This document shows, one piece after another, positions 6,846 to 30,568 of a stretch of 64,000 nt of DNA. The stretch is taken from the NCBI RefSeq assembly GCF_001677475.2, contig NZ_CP015229.1, one strand, 5' to 3'. Position numbers and translations under genes: made by a program. Position 1 is the first letter of the stretch, and each line of letters starts with the position of its first letter. The notes under the pieces are model-generated. The model ran no database searches and had not been told where the DNA came from. It saw only the letters and a program-made list of their open reading frames with translations. This DNA is from Escherichia coli. GTDB lineage: Bacteria > Pseudomonadota > Gammaproteobacteria > Enterobacterales > Enterobacteriaceae.

Positions 6846-7498
6846 TGACTTGATAATGTCTCCGCATTACACAGACCATGGCGAATTGCCAGGTGAGTCA
6901 GCTCAACATCGCCATGAATGTTTAGTTTACTGAACATACGATAGCGGTAGCTGTTCACCGTTTTCGGACTGAGATTGAGCTGTTCTGAGATCTCATTGAC
7001 CTTCTGGCCCTTGGTGATCATCAGCATAATCTGCAATTCACGTTCAGACAAACTGGCAAATGGGCTTTCTGTTTTTTCTGGTTCGATCTGGCTTAACGCC
7101 ATTTGTTGAGCGATGTCAGAAGCAATGTAACGCTGCCCTGAATAGACAGAACGGATCGCACTCACGACTTCCTGCGGAGCCGCGCCTTTGCTGAGGTAGC
7201 CCGCAGCACCGGCCTGCATGACTTTCGCTGGTAAAGGGTTTTCTGTATGGACGGTAAGCATGATGATTTTGACATCAGCTGTGGAACGCGCGATTTTACG
7301 CGTCGCCTCAAGACCGCCAATGCCCGGCATACTCATGTCCATTAGCACCACGTCAACGGCATTTGCCCGGCACCACTTAACGGCGTCTTCACCGCACGAT
7401 GCCTCACCGACGACTTTTATACCCTTTATATCTTCCAGAATGCGTCGTATCCCTGCGCGCACCAGTTCGTGGTCATCAACAAGTAGAACGTTGATCAA
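6842..7498 (-). CDS. uvrY: response regulator UvrY (BarA partner)
   Basis: 218 aa receiver + LuxR-type HTH ORF overlapping uvrC start. Confidence 0.95.
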
Positions 7499-7957
7499 AG
7501 GAATATCTCCAGAAATAGGGATAACGCTACTGATAGTTAGTCATTCGTATATTAGCGGTTTTTATTGCAACTTTGAAACGTTAAAAATGGTGGGTATTCG
7601 ATTTTTCTCTCGTTTTTGTAAATTCGATTGTCCACAGTTATGGTCACGCCCGTCACCAACGGCTTCCGGGATCGTTTCACAGTAAGCCCTGCGATGAAAT
7701 GTGACAAAAATTGACTTTATTCAGCAAAAATGAAAATCAGCCCGCTGAATATGTAACATTAATTAACCCGAACAATACGGGCAAAAAACATTCATGATAA
7801 AAATATTTATTGGTCATTATATTAACGTATTTTATAGCACTGCCGATATCACGCTCAAAAAACAACCACTGCTATTTTTAGCAAAGCTTATGGTATACTC
7901 CGCCGCCTTAACATTTTTCACCGCAAATTTTTCATTGCAACATGACGAGGAAAATAA

Positions 7958-8182
7958 ATGAGTACGCCTGATTTTTCTACTGCCGAGAATAATCAAGAAC
8001 TGGCAAATGAAGTCTCCTGCCTGAAAGCGATGCTGACGCTGATGCTGCAGGCGATGGGACAAGCTGACGCGGGCCGCGTGATGTTAAAGATGGAAAAACA
8101 GCTTGCGCTGATCGAAGACGAAACCCAGGCTGCAGTATTTTCCAAAACGGTTAAGCAAATTAAACAAGCCTACCGTCAGTAA
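7958..8182 (+). CDS. yecF: uncharacterized protein YecF
   Basis: 74 aa ORF in K-12 position. Confidence 0.8.
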
Positions 8183-8185
8183 TAT

Positions 8186-8222
8186 AAAACCGGCTGAGAG
8201 CGTGCCTTTCAGCCGGTTTTTG
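8186..8222 (+). terminator. rho-independent terminator after yecF
   Basis: aaaaccggctga...tcagccggttttt hairpin plus T-run. Confidence 0.7.
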
Positions 8223-8248
8223 CATCTGACATGCAGAAAGAAAAGAGA

Positions 8249-8971
8249 TCAAATTAAGCCAGTAGCAGCCGCGTAACAGGCAACCTGCGTCTTATTCGGT
8301 GCATTGATTTTTTTCTGCATGTTTTTCTGATGAAAATTGACCGTATTCTCAGAGATTGACAAAATCATCGCTATCTCTGCTGATGTCTTCCCTTCCGCCG
8401 TCCATTTCAGAATTTCTTTTTCGCGCTTGCTGAAATTCATCTCTGGCGTCATCACTATTTCATCATTTAAACGCATCAGAGCCATCAGACTTTCGCGCAC
8501 CAGTAACTGCATTTTTAATTGCAGTTCATCACTAAGAATGGGTATTTCGCGCGCGCTGCTACGGGAAAAGGACAAAAAGCCCAGCGCCCGGTTTGGCAGC
8601 ATTAAATACTGAGTGACACCGCGGCGTAAACCATGTGCGCGCGCGGCTTCCCATAACGGCTGTGCTTCGCTGAATAAGTCATCATTCCACATTAAATGGC
8701 CCTGACTAAAGTTTTCAGGATTCAGCACCGGATCAATTGCGAGAAAGTTTTTTGCCTGATAATAACTAACCCACGCCTCAGGGTAATTGGTGTAGAAAGC
8801 CACTTTAGGTCGCGTGAATGGTACCGGGTGGCGAACACATAACGAATAGTAATCGTACTCCAGCTGCTGAGCCTGAAGCTCTATTTCATGGTAGACCTCT
8901 TCTGCGGCCTCCATCCTCTGAAAACGCAACAGCATCGTGCGACGCCAGCTGAAAAAATCCGTATCCTGCAT
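8249..8971 (-). CDS. sdiA: LuxR-family quorum-sensing regulator SdiA
   Basis: Matches recalled SdiA from MQDTDFFSWRR; start set at 8971 (240 aa). Confidence 0.93.
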   Translation of the reverse strand: MQDTDFFSWRRTMLLRFQRMEAAEEVYHEIELQAQQLEYDYYSLCVRHPVPFTRPKVAFYTNYPEAWVSYYQAKNFLAIDPVLNPENFSQGHLMWNDDLFSEAQPLWEAARAHGLRRGVTQYLMLPNRALGFLSFSRSSAREIPILSDELQLKMQLLVRESLMALMRLNDEIVMTPEMNFSKREKEILKWTAEGKTSAEIAMILSISENTVNFHQKNMQKKINAPNKTQVACYAAATGLI

Positions 8972-9200
8972 AGTAAACCGCAACGCCCCTGAGAGTGAGT
9001 ATCATTTATAATGATAATTCAAACTATCACATAAATAAGATTTATATATAATTTATATTATTCAGGCAATGAATTACTTTTGCAAGCCATCGCATTCTCT
9101 TATGTTATTAATGAGTTATGCTGATTTGTTAAGCAGTTTTATCTCGCTTGAAATGGCGTCCCGCCCCGACAGGTGAATCGTCGGGGCTGATTTTTTCTTA

Positions 9201-9953
9201 TTATTGCAGCAGAAACTTCTCGAGGAACTGGCGGGTGCGAGGCTGCTGGGGATCGGCAAATAACGCTTTTGCTGCCCCCTGCTCGACTATCCGCCCCTGG
9301 TCCATAAAAATCGCCCGGTCCGCAACATCCCGGGCAAAGCTCATTTCGTGCGTCACAATCACCATCGTGCGCTTTTCCTGCGCCAGCTGACGGATGGTGT
9401 TCAGGACTTCGCCCACCAGCTCTGGATCCAGCGCCGACGTTGGCTCGTCAAACAAAATCACTTCAGGACGCATTGCCAGCGCTCGCGCAATCGCGACACG
9501 CTGCTGTTGACCGCCAGACAAACGGCGCGGATAGCTGGTTTCTTTACCGGCCAGCCCAACTTTCGCCAACAGCTCGCGAGCGCGCGCCGTGGCCTCTTCT
9601 TTTGGTTCGCCTTTGACGATCACCGGCCCTTCAATAATGTTTTCCAGCACCGTACGATGCGGAAACAAATTAAAGTTCTGGAAGACAAACCCGACGTGCT
9701 GACGCAACTGGCGAATCAGCGATTTTTGCTGACTTAATGAACGTGCAGTATCAATAGTGATATCGCCAACGGTGATGGTTCCCGCTTCCGGTTGTTCCAG
9801 CAGATTTATGCTGCGTAGCAACGTGGTTTTGCCGGAACCACTTGGACCGATAATTGCCACTACTTCGCCAGGCTTCACCTCAAGGTCGATACCGTGCAGC
9901 ACCGTCTGACCGTGGAATTTTTTCACCAGGTTCTTAACTTCAATGGCACTCAT
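9201..9953 (-). CDS. tcyN: cystine ABC transporter ATP-binding protein
   Basis: 250 aa ORF with Walker A GPSGSGKTT and ABC signature LSGGQQQR. Confidence 0.93.
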   Translation of the reverse strand: MSAIEVKNLVKKFHGQTVLHGIDLEVKPGEVVAIIGPSGSGKTTLLRSINLLEQPEAGTITVGDITIDTARSLSQQKSLIRQLRQHVGFVFQNFNLFPHRTVLENIIEGPVIVKGEPKEEATARARELLAKVGLAGKETSYPRRLSGGQQQRVAIARALAMRPEVILFDEPTSALDPELVGEVLNTIRQLAQEKRTMVIVTHEMSFARDVADRAIFMDQGRIVEQGAAKALFADPQQPRTRQFLEKFLLQ

Positions 9954-25050: not shown

Positions 25051-25863
25051 CTAGACACTTCCGAGCCGTTGATAATACTGGTTTTCATATTCTGTCGGTG
25101 ACATCTGATCGCTGGAACCATGCCGACGCTTACTGTTATAAAACATTTCGATGTAATCAAAAATATCGCTGCGGGCTTCTTCCCGCGTTCCGTAGATCTT
25201 TTTCTTTATCCGTTCGCGTTTCAACAACTGGAAAAAGCTTTCTGCAACCGCATTATCATGGCAGTTACCGCGACGGCTCATGCTGCCCTCCAGGCCGTGT
25301 GATTTCAGGAACGACTGCCACTCATGGCTTGTGTACTGACTGCCCTGATCCGAATGAACCAGCACCTGTTTTTGGGGATTACGGCGCCATACAGCCATCA
25401 GCAGTGCGTTCAGGACAATGTCCTTTGTCATCCGGGATTGCATGGACCAGCCGATAATTTTGCGTGAGAACAGATCAACAACCACGGCAAGATACAGCCA
25501 GCCTTCGTGGGTCCTGATGTAGGTTATGTCCGTTACCCAACGCTTATCCGGAGCATCCGGATTGAACTGTCGCTGGAGCCTGTTGGGCGACACGATACTG
25601 GCCTCGCCTTTACGTGCCCGCGGGCTCCGGTATCCGACCTGAGCCTTTATCCCGACACGTTTCATCAGTCGCCAGACTCTGTTCACTCCGCACTGTTGCC
25701 CGCTGTCCCGCAGATCCAGATGGATTTTGCGATAACCATAGACGCATCCCGATTCCAGCCAGAACTGTTTAATCTGCCCTGTCAGCCTCAGGTCTGCCTG
25801 ATGGCGTTGTGAATGCGGCTGCTGAAGCCAGGCGTAAAAACCACTGGGATGAACATCCAGCAC
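25051..25863 (-). CDS. IS3-family transposase OrfB (DDE catalytic domain; expressed as OrfAB fusion)
   Basis: ORF with DDE integrase-core motifs (KRWVTDITYIRT, LVHSDQGSQYTS, CHDNAVAESFF). Confidence 0.85.
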   Translation of the reverse strand: MLDVHPSGFYAWLQQPHSQRHQADLRLTGQIKQFWLESGCVYGYRKIHLDLRDSGQQCGVNRVWRLMKRVGIKAQVGYRSPRARKGEASIVSPNRLQRQFNPDAPDKRWVTDITYIRTHEGWLYLAVVVDLFSRKIIGWSMQSRMTKDIVLNALLMAVWRRNPQKQVLVHSDQGSQYTSHEWQSFLKSHGLEGSMSRRGNCHDNAVAESFFQLLKRERIKKKIYGTREEARSDIFDYIEMFYNSKRRHGSSDQMSPTEYENQYYQRLGSV

Positions 25864-25919
25864 CCGACAGAGCAGGCGAACAGGCCAGCAACAGGTGTTG
25901 TCACGGATAAAGGCGTACC

Positions 25920-26204
25920 TCAGTCGGACAGCTTTGCGAAGTACGCCGCGGCTTTTTTTAATATGTCCCGTTCGTCGGTAACCCGCTTCAGCTCTTTCTG
26001 GAGACGGCGGATCTCGGCCTGAGCATCTGACTGTTCTTTATTAGCGGAAGAATCCGGACCGTACTTCTTTATCCAGGCGTAAAGGCTGTGGGTGGTGATA
26101 TCGAGACGTGTTGCAACGCTGGCAACAGAATAACCGCGATCAACAACCTGTTTGACTGCTTCAATTTTAAACTCTTCGGGATAACGCTTACCGCTCATGG
26201 GCAC
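25920..26204 (-). CDS. IS3-family transposase OrfA (HTH)
   Basis: 94 aa ORF with HTH and leucine-zipper-like C-terminus ending at the frameshift site. Confidence 0.85.
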   Translation of the reverse strand: MPMSGKRYPEEFKIEAVKQVVDRGYSVASVATRLDITTHSLYAWIKKYGPDSSANKEQSDAQAEIRRLQKELKRVTDERDILKKAAAYFAKLSD

Positions 26205-26427
26205 CTCTCTTTAAGCCATCTTAAATGACTCTGAGGTGTCTGTTAAACCCGTGGCGATTCAAAGATCGTCCAAGAGCGCACCAAATAACAGATGGTTATA
26301 GTCGTCGAAAACATCAGTCGCCTAAGTTCACCTTAGAACTAGTGCTGTTTTGTGTCCCACCCATGCCCCACTGCCCCTTCTTTTCCTTCCTGCCCTATAC
26401 TTTCAGTCTGACTGACTGGAGGCTTCT

Positions 26428-27018
26428 ATGTGTGGACGTTTTGCACAAGCCCAAACCCGTGAAGAATACCTGGCATACCTGGCCGATGAGGCTGATCGCG
26501 ATATCGCATACGACCCGGAGCCTATTGGCCGGTACAACGTGGCGCCCGGTACCAAAGTTCTGCTCCTGAACGAACGCGACGAGCAGCTGCACCTCGATCC
26601 GGTTCTGTGGTCGTACGCGCCCGGGTGGTGGGATAAGCAGCCGCTGATTAACGCGCGCGTCGAGACGGCGGCCACTAGCCGCATGTTCAAACCTCTCTGG
26701 CAGCATGGCCGGGCGATCTGTTTTGCAGATGGGTGGTTCGAATGGAAGAAGGAAGGCGAAAAGAAACAGCCCTACTTCATTATCAACCCGGTCACTGGTA
26801 AGCCGGTCTCGGGTAATAACAAAGGCAGTATGTTGCTCATCTGGCGACCATTCCCGCGGGCAAACTGCCACTTCGCAACAGTGGAGAGGGATGAGTTGAT
26901 GACATTCGGAGCGAAACTTCTCGCCCGGTGGGAGGCCGCATATGGATTAAAGTACACCTCTGGTAATCCATGTATAATTAGATACCAGAGGAGCTTTGAA
27001 CCAAAAAAATATTATTAA
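26428..27018 (+). pseudogene. truncated divergent second copy of SRAP/yedK (only N-terminal ~115 codons are YedK-like)
   Basis: MCGRFAQAQTREEYLAYLADEADRDIAYDPEPIGRYNVAPGTKVLLL... parallels yedK to KKQPYF, then unrelated sequence; nucleotide level clearly diverged from yedK; upstream leader also yedK-like. Confidence 0.7.
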
Positions 27019-27812
27019 TTTCTATGTCTATAGGAGCCTCCAAGTCTAAATCCAAAAGTATATCTTTTAATATTATCAAACAAAAAAGCCTGCTCGTTAT
27101 TAAATATATTCAATTGAGACAGCTTTTCCATGAATGTTTTTGTCTCATCCATAAACTTCTCTGCAAATGAAGGATGTTTTAGCGCTTCAAAGAGTGTTGC
27201 GGAAAAATTTGTTTTTGCAAACATAGAGGCGCTTTGTAATTTATTTTGCCACTTAACTAAATAGTCATCACCTTCATTGTTTAATATTTCTTGGCTTGGC
27301 AGAACCAGTGCTGTTCCATGTGCTATAGCGTTCCGAAGGTGGAACATAGCAGTGAACGCATTTTTATCGGACATCATATCTTCAACCTTCAAGCCAGTAT
27401 AATCTTTAATCGCCTTTTTAAGATTATCCCAGCTCCCATTTGCTTCTAACTCTATATGCAAATTGAAAATCTTGTTATACGATCGAAAAATAGTTCTTGC
27501 GTTTTCTTTATTTGGTTCCGTTGCTGCAAGTTCCCCCATTGCATGGTGATCTTTCGATACAGCAGCGGTGAAAACCTGCCTCAAAATACCTTCAACAATC
27601 GCAGCATTCAGACTTATTAACGTGAGATTTCTGAATATGTTCTCATCTTTTAAAACTATTGTTTCTTTTGGGTTGCCATAGCGATCAAGTTGATCATAAT
27701 CCTTGTCTATTGCACCATTTTTAATCTTAATCGCAATTTCTTCGTATTGCTGAAGTAAATAAACATTAGTATTAAATATGTTAAATGAAGTTATCCTCGG
27801 AACAATTTCCAT
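27015..27812 (-). CDS. hypothetical protein with Rx4H (HEPN-type) motif; candidate abortive-infection/toxin-like RNase
   Basis: AT-rich ORF; internal ATG at 27812 (MEIVPR...) has a GAGGGG RBS, the ORF-track start at 27833 does not; motif FHLRNAIAHG fits the HEPN R-x4-6-H signature; no other domain recognised. Confidence 0.55.
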   Translation of the reverse strand: MEIVPRITSFNIFNTNVYLLQQYEEIAIKIKNGAIDKDYDQLDRYGNPKETIVLKDENIFRNLTLISLNAAIVEGILRQVFTAAVSKDHHAMGELAATEPNKENARTIFRSYNKIFNLHIELEANGSWDNLKKAIKDYTGLKVEDMMSDKNAFTAMFHLRNAIAHGTALVLPSQEILNNEGDDYLVKWQNKLQSASMFAKTNFSATLFEALKHPSFAEKFMDETKTFMEKLSQLNIFNNEQAFLFDNIKRYTFGFRLGGSYRHRN

Positions 27813-28015
27813 TGTCACACCCCTCGATTTCATTAAATCCTGATATGAGAAGCTATGGTATCAACAAATGTGAAAAAATCTAGTTAGAACCCAGAAAAAT
27901 GCTTAATAGGCCATTTAAGCAACGTCTTAATACTTATCGAATACTTGGAGATGTAGCAGAACCCCGGAGGTATTAAGCGGAGAATTCTACGCGCTATGCG
28001 TGCGACATGAGGAGG

Positions 28016-28228
28016 TTAAGCAATCATTCCGAAATGCTTCATCGCTTGCTCGATGAAAGTAACGTAATTAACAGGGCATTCATACACTTTTGAGTCAGGA
28101 GAGATACGGTTCGGCGCCTTCTTCATCTTGAACCCATGCATGTGCTTAACATGAGCGATATGGCATGTCTTAACACTGACACCATGGTTAGCTTTGACGT
28201 ATTCCTGGATCTGCTTATAGGTAGCCAT
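28016..28228 (-). CDS. small Cys/His-rich hypothetical protein (70 aa), possible partner of the HEPN-motif gene
   Basis: Start MATYKQIQEYVK preceded by AAGGAG RBS; same strand and immediately upstream of 27015..27812. Confidence 0.5.
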   Translation of the reverse strand: MATYKQIQEYVKANHGVSVKTCHIAHVKHMHGFKMKKAPNRISPDSKVYECPVNYVTFIEQAMKHFGMIA

Positions 28229-28342
28229 GCACCTCTCCTTTTTCATCACGACTCAATATACATGACAGGAAGCGCAGTGATAGCCAGTTATGTTCTAACC
28301 TGAGATTTAACCCGCGATATACTTTCTGCAACGGAGGATCCC

Positions 28343-28591
28343 ATGGCAGAAAGAAATGATAAGCCGCCTAAACCGGTTGCTGTCAGTCGGAGAATAATCA
28401 AAGGGCTTAGTCAATGCGAGCGGTGCAAGAAAACAAGGCTGGAGTGCCGCCGCATAGCGATGTCAGACGGAACAAGAATCGTCGCCTGTTTTGATTGTAT
28501 GACCGCCAAAAGCATAACTGGTAAAAAGCAAAAAAAGCTCAAAGTGTTTGAAATTTTAACCGCCTTTGAATCATCTCGACGAAAGCACTAA
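28343..28591 (+). CDS. C4 zinc-finger protein (CxxC...CxxC), putative island regulator
   Basis: 82 aa ORF with GGAGGA RBS; CERCKK...CFDC motif. Confidence 0.55.
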   Translation: MAERNDKPPKPVAVSRRIIKGLSQCERCKKTRLECRRIAMSDGTRIVACFDCMTAKSITGKKQKKLKVFEILTAFESSRRKH

Positions 28592-28640
28592 CCATCTATA
28601 GCCGCCCACTGAGGCGGTTTCTTTTTGCCTGGAGAAAACC

Positions 28641-28886
28641 ATGAGCGACATTATCAACCTGGTACCGAATAAATGGGTGACTGAGCAGAACCTGATCGCA
28701 GTCACCGGATTAAGGCCAGGAACCATTGAACGAGCCCGCCGCGAGTCATGGTTCGCCGGCCGCGAATATATGCATGTTTCACCCGATGGAAACCCAAAGC
28801 CAAACAGTGAATGCATGTACAACACAGAAGCCATTAATCACTGGATCGAACAGCAAGCATCAAAACAGCCGGGTGCTCATTCATGA
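28641..28886 (+). CDS. excisionase-like DNA-binding protein
   Basis: 81 aa ORF immediately upstream of the integrase, with RBS; the Xis-like assignment is by position and size only. Confidence 0.5.
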   Translation: MSDIINLVPNKWVTEQNLIAVTGLRPGTIERARRESWFAGREYMHVSPDGNPKPNSECMYNTEAINHWIEQQASKQPGAHS

Positions 28887-28931
28887 TGAACGGGTTATGC
28901 TTATCAGGCTCTTGGACGTCAGGAGGGGATA

Positions 28932-30233
28932 ATGGCTAAATCAGCATACCCAACAGGCGTTGAGAACCACGGAGGAACTCTCCGCATATGGTTCATCTAT
29001 AAAGGCAGCCGGGTTCGTGAAAGTCTCGGCGTGCCGGATACACCAAAAAACAGAAAGATCGCTGGCGAGCTACGCGCGTCGGTGTGCTTTTCGATTAAGA
29101 CCGGTAACTTCAATTATGCGGCCCAGTTTCCGGACTCACCTAATCTGAAAAGATTTGGCGTGGAGAGTAAGGAAATAACCGTGCTGGAACTAGCGAACAA
29201 GTGGCTTGAACTGAAGCGTATGGAGATCAGCACCAACGCGATGTCACGCTATGCATCTATAGCGCGCAACATGGTGCCCAGGATTGGTGGGGACAGGCTG
29301 GTATCTGCGGTAACGCAGGAAGATCTGCTGTTTATCAGGAAGGAATTGCTGACCGGTTATCACACGCTGAAAGTCGGGCAGAAAACGCCGGTTAAGGGCC
29401 GCTCAGTCAGAACGGTCAACAACTACATGAAGACCATGGGCGGGATGTTTAAGTTTGCCGCTGATAGCGGTTATGTACGGGTGAATCCGTTCACCGGGAT
29501 CGCCATGCTTAAGCGGTCACGATGCGAGTCTGACCCGCTGACGCGCGATGAGTTTGTCAGGTTGATTAACGCCTGCGCCCACCAGCAACTGAAAAACATG
29601 TGGTCTCTTGCCGTCTACACCGGCGTGCGCCACGGAGAACTTGTGTCGCTGGCCTGGGAAGATATCGACATGAAAGCGGGTACGATGATGATCCGCCGGA
29701 ACCACACGTTAACGAAGGAATTCACCCTTCCGAAAACAGAGGCCGGGACTGACCGTATCATCAACCTCATTCAGCCAGCGATCGACGTGCTGAAGAGCCA
29801 GGCCGAATTAACACGCCTGGGTAAGCAGTATCAGGTTGAGGTGAAACTGCGCGAGTATGGCCGAACCGATGTGCATCCGTGCACGTTCGTGTTCAACCCG
29901 CAGATCGCTTCGCGTAACAGCCGTGCCGGGCATCATTACGCAGTGGGGTCGATCAACCAGTCATGGGAGGCAGCAATGCGGCGCGCCGGGATTCGCTATC
30001 GCAGAGCATACCAGTCCCGACACACGTATGCATGCTGGTCGTTGGCTGCCGGTGCCAACCCGAACTTCATCGCGAAGCAAATGGGCCACACCGACGCGCA
30101 AATGGTTTACCGGGTGTACGGATCCTGGATGGCTGAAAATAACCAGGACCAGGTACTCATCCTCAACCAGAAATTGAGTGAGTTTGCCCCATCCATGCCC
30201 CACGCCGTGGGAACGGATGGTTATTATTTATAA
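28932..30233 (+). CDS. site-specific tyrosine recombinase (phage-type integrase), intact
   Basis: 433 aa ORF with AGGAGG RBS; C-terminal catalytic region (RHTYACW..., GHTDAQMVYRVYG). Confidence 0.9.
   Translation: MAKSAYPTGVENHGGTLRIWFIYKGSRVRESLGVPDTPKNRKIAGELRASVCFSIKTGNFNYAAQFPDSPNLKRFGVESKEITVLELANKWLELKRMEISTNAMSRYASIARNMVPRIGGDRLVSAVTQEDLLFIRKELLTGYHTLKVGQKTPVKGRSVRTVNNYMKTMGGMFKFAADSGYVRVNPFTGIAMLKRSRCESDPLTRDEFVRLINACAHQQLKNMWSLAVYTGVRHGELVSLAWEDIDMKAGTMMIRRNHTLTKEFTLPKTEAGTDRIINLIQPAIDVLKSQAELTRLGKQYQVEVKLREYGRTDVHPCTFVFNPQIASRNSRAGHHYAVGSINQSWEAAMRRAGIRYRRAYQSRHTYACWSLAAGANPNFIAKQMGHTDAQMVYRVYGSWMAENNQDQVLILNQKLSEFAPSMPHAVGTDGYYL
30165..30205. repeat. 41-bp direct repeat, right copy (within integrase 3' end)
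   Basis: Identical to 24904..24944. Confidence 0.85.
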
Positions 30234-30253
30234 ATATCATTAGGTTAGGTAAC

Positions 30254-30568
30254 CTAAACTTGCATGCCCATCACTTCCTGATACGCCGCCACCAGCTTAT
30301 TACGCACCTGAATCCCCATTTGCATAGAAACTGAGGCTTTTTGCATATCGGTCATCACATCGTTTAACGCCACGCCGGGTTCACCGAGAGTGAATTTTTC
30401 TGCCTGCGTGCGGGCGGCTGTTTGTGTATCGCTTATGCGATCGAGCGCGGCGTGCAGCTGCCCGGCAAAACTAATGGTCGGTTGCGGCAGTGATTCCTGC
30501 GCACGCGCACTCATCGCCGTAGCCTGTAACTGGCTGATAACCCCTTCAATCCCCTGTATCGCTGACAT
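30254..30568 (-). CDS. fliE: flagellar hook-basal body protein FliE
   Basis: Matches recalled FliE from [16 protein letters not shown]-terminus here is VMGMQV. Confidence 0.93.

Follow-up and report, generated by a model that had tools for sequence, protein, structure and literature searches.

A probable decayed CobraSix-like prophage in the 3′ end of fliE of Escherichia coli carries a chimeric SRAP-dam pseudogene

The 196-codon open reading frame (ORF) located at positions 26428–27018 (+ strand) of the analyzed window (64,000 nt of Escherichia coli contig NZ_CP015229.1, numbered from its first nucleotide) is best explained by the decay of a prophage. It is highly likely that the element spanning positions 25003–30274 is a decayed lambdoid prophage, similar to Enterobacter phage vB_EclS_CobraSix and residing in the 3′ end of fliE, and that a deletion within it fused codon 118 of a SRAP (yedK-like) gene to a phage DNA methyltransferase gene (dam), giving rise to a pseudogene. 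The identified features and their coordinates are presented in Table 1.

Table 1. Features of the fliE-proximal region, with coordinates relative to the first nucleotide of the window.
Feature	Position	Strand	Remarks
Resident intact chromosomal yedK (reference copy)	22113–22781	+	222 aa; from the ORF list
Older integrase gene remnant (equivalent of K-12 intG/PR-G)	24818–24958	+	recognized as a 141-nt direct repeat and by alignment with K-12
attL core	24979–25002		orphan K-12-type end of fliE (final 6 codons and stop; VMSMQV-stop); phage DNA from 25003
IS3-family insertion sequence in the phage arm	25033–26261	-	orfA 25920–26204, orfB 25051–25863
Rest of the phage arm next to attL	26262–26370	+	common to related phages without SRAP
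Own leader of the SRAP cassette	26371–26427	+	-10-like TATACT and GGAGG ribosome-binding site; resembles the yedK leader in part
SRAP (yedK-like) pseudogene fragment, codons 1–118	26428–26781	+	Cys2, Asn75 and Glu105 kept; His160 and C-terminal half missing
3′ end (~53 codons) of phage DNA N6-adenine methyltransferase gene (dam)	26782–26941	+	in-frame fusion to the SRAP fragment
Extension of the chimeric ORF by read-through beyond the usual dam stop	26942–27018	+	without homology found
272-aa AT-rich ORF with a weak HEPN signature	27015–27833	-	PADLOC and Pfam
Two small phage ORFs of the early-left region	28016–28591		77 aa, 28016–28249 (-); 82 aa, Cys-rich, 28343–28591 (+)
Excisionase gene xis, intact	28641–28886	+	phrog_539, E = 1.9e-37
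Tyrosine integrase gene int, intact, directed toward attR/fliE	28932–30233	+	433 aa; phrog_1, E = 3e-78
attR core	30251–30274		final 6 codons and stop of the live fliE, provided by the phage (VMGMQV-stop)

The ORF, which is present in the ORF list as the first-pass annotation had stated, starts with MCGRFAQ, and residues 1–118 of its putative product align without gaps with the resident YedK (88.1% aa and 78.0% nt sequence identity over codons 1–118). The ~115 collinear YedK residues reported in that annotation were thus recovered, in agreement with the Pfam and PDB comparisons, and alignment at both the nucleotide and the protein level revealed a similarity extending far beyond a short motif. 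BLASTP analysis of the entire 196-aa sequence against the resident YedK gave 111/146 identities (E = 3e-81), and a repeat search detected a 300-nt direct repeat (78% identity) between both yedK copies. The Pfam SRAP model (PF02586) matched residues 1–120 (E = 5e-29), and the YedK chains in PDB matched residues 1–127 (E = 2e-73), where the alignment ends. The Pfam match covers model positions 1–123 of 214, which bears out the earlier remark that the conserved C-terminal half is missing.

The fragment shares with E. coli YedK (which, like human HMCES, belongs to PF02586) the N-terminal Met1-Cys2, including the Cys2 nucleophile, as well as Asn75 and Glu105 (E. coli YedK numbering), the latter within the sequence WFEWKK. 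In contrast to YedK, it does not form a complete domain of ~210–220 residues: the His160-bearing DIHDRRP sequence is absent, and a piece of dam replaces it together with the C-terminal half.

The resident yedK is placed in the same gene context as in K-12 (yedE-yedF-yedK-yedL), and its product shares 96% aa identity with the resident YedK of E. coli 30EVA1. Comparison of the fragment with this gene identified 61 synonymous and 17 non-synonymous differences, with saturation of the synonymous sites (dS), indicating that the fragment is not a recent duplicate (as had been proposed from the sequence earlier) and that both copies are old relatives. The nucleotide sequence of the fragment belongs to a mobile, Enterobacter-type lineage and not to that of the E. 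coli chromosomal yedK. The copies closest to codons 1–118 are those of an Enterobacter MAG (locus L034; 92.7% nt and 98.3% aa identity), locus L078 (92.4% nt), Enterobacter genomosp. O (locus L006; 91.2% nt) and the 30EVA1 prophage (91.0% nt), compared with 78.0% and 77.7% nt identity for the resident and K-12 yedK genes, respectively. Where their flanks were examined, the closest Enterobacter-type copies are located at prophage ends or beside umuDC. The dN/dS ratio of the fragment versus its intact relatives (~0.04) is near the value obtained for the one intact-intact pair compared (0.026), suggesting that most of the divergence accrued while the gene was functional, before its inactivation.

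An old duplication of the resident yedK, either tandem or segmental, which diverged in place and then decayed, would explain why the two copies share a strand, why only 4.3 kb separates them, and why their 5′ halves are collinear and their proximal leaders similar. Such an origin is hardly credible, given that (i) the synonymous sites are saturated with respect to the resident gene, while Enterobacter-type copies at or near prophage ends share 91–93% nt identity with the fragment, (ii) the fragment lies within att-bounded phage DNA, and (iii) the SRAP part was matched at the megablast level in only 6 of 5,426 E. coli genomes, the one match examined (H1, strain 30EVA1) being located at a prophage end.

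The reading frame downstream of KKQPYF, which had been described as unrelated, turned out to be the in-frame 3′ end of a phage dam gene, as indicated by Pfam, PHROG and tblastn analyses and by nucleotide alignment. Within the 196-aa ORF, Pfam Dam (PF05869) was matched at model positions 123–168 of 169, with methyltransferase-derived residues at ~117–163, and the PHROG methyltransferase families phrog_111 and phrog_6083 were also detected. In tblastn searches, residues 119–196 corresponded to the Dam C-terminus of Enterobacter phages ENT1/BHUENT (85% aa identity), CobraSix (83%) and Escherichia phage PhiR30_1 (72%); at the nucleotide level, the dam 3′ end is 81.6% identical to that of CobraSix. 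The full Dam domain with the (D/N)PPY motif is not present in the window, and the WLNPPYS sequence of PhiR30_1 Dam is located ~60 residues upstream of the part retained. In both PhiR30_1 and CobraSix, dam is placed upstream of xis-int, in the same orientation, within the early-left operon.

A three-way nucleotide alignment allowed precise localization of the junction: the window matches SRAP as far as ...CCCTACTTCATT and matches dam starting with TTATCAACCC..., with a TT overlap at positions 26780–26781. The resulting junction sequence is GAAACAGCCCTACTTCATTATCAACCCGGTCACTGG; the break falls at SRAP codon 118, and the two parts are joined in frame. No match to the exact 36-nt SRAP-dam junction was found in the viral and metagenome contig collections, so, as judged from these searches, the fusion looks private to the lineage of the window. 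The dam homology ends at position 26941, where the normal stop codon has been lost: related Dam proteins end with REAA followed by the stop, and the window reads WEAAYGLKY and continues to a stop codon at 27016–27018. A segment of 35% GC content comes next. The coincidence of the stop loss with the end of homology near position 26942 points to at least one further putative rearrangement or cassette insertion at this site.

Upstream of the ORF, ~90 bp had been described as resembling the yedK leader. This holds for the proximal part: similarity to the resident yedK leader is significant only at approximately -40 to -1 (local score 14 versus 5.8±1.2 in shuffled sequences), i.e. ~40 nt, whereas the sequence between -90 and -36 is no more similar than shuffled sequences. 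Among SRAP cassettes, the common leader extends to ~50 nt. In the SRAP loci of Enterobacter, Citrobacter, Lelliottia and phage PHB10, homology starts ~50 nt upstream of the ATG codon, and the E. coli megablast matches H2–H6 begin at query positions 116–128. The part of the phage arm preceding the leader is 96.4% identical to the prophage end of E. coli HL15 and 84.8% identical to the attP region of CobraSix. In both of these elements, which do not carry SRAP, the match stops at window position 26370 and the sequence differs beyond it. Since the SRAP-less arm ends at this position and the SRAP loci are alike from about -50, the leader appears to belong to a portable cassette starting at ~26371–26377.

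A scan with the sigma-70 consensus identified no promoter on the + strand upstream of the ORF; the -10-like sequence of the leader was recognized by eye. Visual inspection was also used to assess a candidate LexA box at ~26336, but its sequence (CTGT-N8-CCAC) does not fit CTGT-N8-ACAG and it was rejected. A separate feature of the phage arm is a ~40-nt degenerate copy of the 3′ end of int (~26334–26374), which includes the 19-mer TGTCCCACCCATGCCCCAC. Its alignment score (16.5 versus 8.6±1.4 in shuffled sequences) was reached by 1 of 2000 shuffles, and its presence suggests an older rearrangement of the att region in the phage lineage.

The att sites were mapped by alignment of window positions 24860–25032 and 30121–30330 with the intG-fliE region of K-12 and its counterpart in E. 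coli 30EVA1. The left site matches K-12 exactly as far as ...CTGCATGCTCATCAC (ending CATCAC) and then passes into phage DNA, whereas K-12 and attR continue into fliE. The duplicated core of 24 nt is of the bacterial type at attL; at attR it has the sequence AACCTAAACTTGCATGCCCATCAC, carries phage-type polymorphisms and runs on into fliE, so that the live gene encodes Gly where K-12 has Ser. The orphan K-12-type end of fliE at attL, together with the phage-type end at attR, indicates that the phage entered fliE at its 3′ end, which it replaced with a version of its own; the comparison shows that the predicted C-terminus of FliE was rewritten, from Ser to Gly, by phage integration. A different scenario, in which an element integrated into yedK and provided a replacement gene end, was considered and rejected: the att core is made up of the terminal codons of fliE, and the observed order, with the intact gene preceding the 5′ fragment, is not what such an event would leave.

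The fliE site was used by an earlier integration as well, since the older integrase remnant forms a direct repeat (79% identity) of the intact int 3′ end (30079–30219). This remnant aligns with the K-12 intG-fliE junction, the integrase remnant of K-12 being annotated as intG of “cryptic prophage PR-G”. The gene order of the chromosomal backbone (yedD-yedE-yedF-yedK-yedL, an LRR/DUF5503 gene, the integrase remnant and, later, fliE-fliF-fliG) matches that of K-12. The best identity of this backbone (window 19000–25032) among 5,426 complete E. coli genomes does not exceed 97.1%, which may mean either that the source belongs to a divergent branch of Escherichia or that this stretch close to the flagellar genes recombines at a high rate. 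The LRR/DUF5503 gene (23513–24631, - strand; 36% GC) is an intact 372-aa ORF in the window; its K-12 counterpart is the pseudogene yedN, and a frameshift interrupts it in both E. coli 30EVA1 and HL15.

Besides the duplicated att core at a known target, the element retains adjoining excisionase and integrase genes, both intact. Between the att sites there are only ~4 kb of non-IS DNA without structural ORFs. The lack of replication, lysis and virion genes indicates that the element is a remnant and not a live phage. The “island” of the first-pass annotation is more precisely a decayed lambdoid prophage.

The IS3-family element has 38-nt imperfect terminal inverted repeats and is flanked by a 3-bp target duplication (aag; 25030–25032 and 26262–26264). 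Its flanks are contiguous in E. coli 30EVA1, where positions 7482–9003 and 8999–9520 of locus L001 correspond to window positions 23506–25032 and 26260–26781, respectively. Together with the target duplication, this identifies the IS as a simple insertion into the phage arm. It is located 30 nt from the attL core and probably parts the core from any arm-type integrase-binding sites; excision of the remnant may be blocked by this insertion.

Immediately downstream of the chimeric ORF, and in the opposite orientation, lies the 272-aa ORF (35% GC), which was matched by the PADLOC RTasHEPN model (E = 3.8e-8) and by Pfam HEPN_RiboL-PSP (i-E = 0.0018). It had no PHROG match and no megablast match in the 5,426 E. 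coli genomes. On the basis of these profile matches, it is a probable accessory or defence gene of the remnant; it may serve in phage defence or abortive infection and have been retained along with the intact xis and int. The 77-aa ORF belongs to phrog_27283 (E = 5e-21). The 82-aa ORF matched no PHROG family, and its zinc-finger type was read from the pattern of Cys residues only; in CobraSix and PhiR30_1, a small zinc-finger/TraR-like ORF is located between dam and xis.

The xis-int-attP block shares 88% nt identity with that of CobraSix (genus Cobrasixvirus), to which the window is also related through the dam 3′ end and the phage arm up to 26370. Unlike the window, CobraSix has no SRAP gene after attP, where umuC is present instead; the window, in turn, lacks the replication, lysis and structural modules of this phage. 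The int gene shares 87% nt identity with the integrase gene adjoining fliE in the 30EVA1 prophage. The K-12 element PR-G uses the same site in the 3′ end of fliE, and the window likewise contains an intG-type remnant followed by a K-12-type fliE end at attL. However, in K-12 the intG remnant leads straight into fliE, whereas in the window there was a second integration at a later time, represented by intact xis and int genes, the chimeric SRAP-dam ORF, the HEPN-like ORF and the IS.

Intact counterparts of the SRAP gene were found in several phages and prophages. Window positions 26260–26781 are 92.9% identical (nt) to the SRAP region, including the upstream arm, of a ~45-kb prophage located at fliE in E. 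coli 30EVA1 (2593171–2638343). The order of genes in this prophage is intG′ - attL - SRAP (223 aa) - two small ORFs - gtrABC - tail fibre - TipJ ... xis - int - fliE, and its SRAP gene is annotated as an SOS response-associated peptidase. Escherichia phage PHB10 has the order int - SRAP (92% aa identity) - csp genes - umuDC - tail fibre. At the Enterobacter genomosp. O locus (98% aa identity), SRAP is followed by a UmuD-like gene, an O-antigen acetylase gene and tail fibre/J genes, and is preceded by the ordinary host genes rsmF and prpA. The Salmonella Gifsy-2 record contains an unannotated, partial SRAP match (query residues 1–178 of 223 only).

In the 30EVA1 prophage, PHB10, Gifsy-2 (partial match) and SPbeta (YoqW), SRAP is the first gene across attP from int. 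The 30EVA1 and Enterobacter copies share, besides 91–93% nt identity with the fragment, the ~50-nt leader. In contrast to the intact phages, the gene in the window is cut at codon 118 and fused to dam, and the umuDC, UmuD-like, gtr and tail neighbours are absent. Phage-borne SRAP genes as such are already known: Aravind et al. 2013 (PMC3765255) reported both that temperate phages carry them and that they are associated with mutagenic SOS operons.

These counterparts bear directly on two explanations offered previously for the truncated gene. One, a foreign SRAP gene carried on the element and later truncated, is supported by the full-length genes occupying the same att-proximal position (223 aa in the 30EVA1 prophage, and also in the sequenced phage PHB10) and by the Enterobacter-type nearest relatives. 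The other assumes that a piece of the chromosomal yedK of another host (promoter and 5′ half) was picked up by imprecise excision and was never complete on the element. The SRAP lineage is indeed close to enterobacterial yedK (87% aa identity to E. coli YedK over the full length), its proximal leader is yedK-like, and a position next to attP, across from int, is where capture from the int-side flank would be expected. Complete copies of 222–223 aa are nevertheless found at the same position in the 30EVA1 prophage, PHB10 and Enterobacter prophage ends, and the broken end is joined to phage dam rather than to att or host DNA, which places the truncation inside an element that already had the whole gene. 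Imprecise excision is therefore a very unlikely cause of the truncation, although the cassette itself could possibly have originated through an older phage capture of host yedK.

The mapped att sites, the collinearity with intact prophages, the two parental genes and their junction are all consistent with the following course of events, starting from a complete SRAP gene on the prophage. Phages of the CobraSix-like kind often carry such a gene together with its ~50-nt leader; seen from int, it comes first on the far side of attP, and it is often found beside umuDC-type genes. A temperate lambdoid phage of this kind would have integrated site-specifically in the last codons of fliE, beside the older integrase remnant (intG/PR-G). 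One illegitimate deletion, with an estimated size of ~40 kb as judged from the 45-kb 30EVA1 prophage, would then have removed the phage body (the late region in its entirety and the larger part of the early one), joining SRAP codon 118 to the last ~53 codons of dam at a 2-nt microhomology. The join is in frame by chance and gives the 196-codon chimeric ORF. The IS3-family element may have been inserted, 30 nt into the phage arm, before or after this deletion.

Megablast analysis of positions 26781–28600, to the right of the junction, gave no match among the 5,426 E. coli genomes, and the prophage from which the remnant directly derives was not recovered in intact form from any genome; the nearest SRAP relatives are ~7–9% diverged at the nucleotide level. 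Because such a parent was not recovered and positions 26942–28600 are unmatched in these genomes, a single deletion, as opposed to several steps, is presumptive.

In YedK, Cys2 covalently links abasic sites in single-stranded DNA, with the participation of Glu105 and His160. By analogy, the SRAP protein of the intact parent would act like YedK. Since His160 and half of the single-domain fold (~100 residues) are gone, the fragment has to be considered a pseudogene, and its product is predicted to be almost certainly inactive. The 196-aa ORF may still be transcribed and translated from the retained leader, ribosome-binding site and ATG codon, but the production of an active SRAP or methyltransferase protein from it appears very unlikely.

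It is highly improbable that the SRAP(1–118)-Dam chimera is an expressed protein with a retained or new activity, e.g. DNA binding or interference with YedK, even though its 196 uninterrupted codons are preceded by a native leader with GGAGG and ATG, Cys2 and Glu105 are present, and there is no excess of non-synonymous changes. An in-frame join is expected by chance one time in three, and the low dN/dS ratio is accounted for by divergence that preceded the deletion. In addition to the loss of His160 and of ~100 residues from the single-domain fold, the NPPY region of Dam (WLNPPYS in PhiR30_1) lies upstream of the ~53 codons retained. The absence of the exact junction from the viral and metagenome collections gives no sign of its spread or conservation. 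The chimeric ORF is thus best regarded as a product of prophage decay.

The distribution of SRAP genes was examined in 80 enterobacterial loci. In ~35 of these, umuDC is located within 6 kb downstream, nearly always in convergent orientation (e.g. L012:6001–9869 and L004:6001–10806), and some of the umuDC-linked loci have a UmuD-like gene (phrog_3469) nearby or are placed at a prophage end. As judged by marker proteins, the upstream contexts differ among genera (e.g. rsmF-prpA or ompW-yciC-yciB). Among the 80 loci, many of which these markers did not assign to either the chromosomal or the phage-borne type, yedEF was found upstream of SRAP only in Franconibacter and, ~3.5 kb away, in E. vonholyi. 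Several enterobacterial genomes contain two SRAP loci. The chromosomal yedK of E. coli, whose product is the biochemical model of SRAP proteins, borders the fliE integration hot spot on its inner side, is oriented like the fragment and has a related proximal leader.

A broader scenario can be outlined, although we consider it rather unlikely. The att-proximal SRAP cassette, often accompanied by convergent umuDC or UmuD-like genes, would be a widespread, selected damage-tolerance cargo of the lambdoid phages of Enterobacteriaceae, moving between phages with different integrases. E. coli yedK would then be either a domesticated phage gene or the source of the phage genes, and the fragment would represent a snapshot of the repeated delivery of SRAP to this locus.

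The fragment itself is a case of ordinary genome decay and adds one more example to the known kind of chimeric pseudogenes residing in prophage remnants. For annotation, this means that the 196-codon ORF should be recorded as a chimeric pseudogene (SRAP 5′ half and dam 3′ end) and not as a second YedK or a hypothetical protein. The analysis also maps the att site of the CobraSix-like phage family to the last codons of fliE, and reveals that the SRAP cassette is present or absent at a fixed point beside attP in related phages. The recurring pairing of SRAP with umuDC, in some cases at prophage ends, is in line with the association of SRAP with mutagenic SOS operons in the literature, and phage-delivered damage tolerance could be followed up on this basis.
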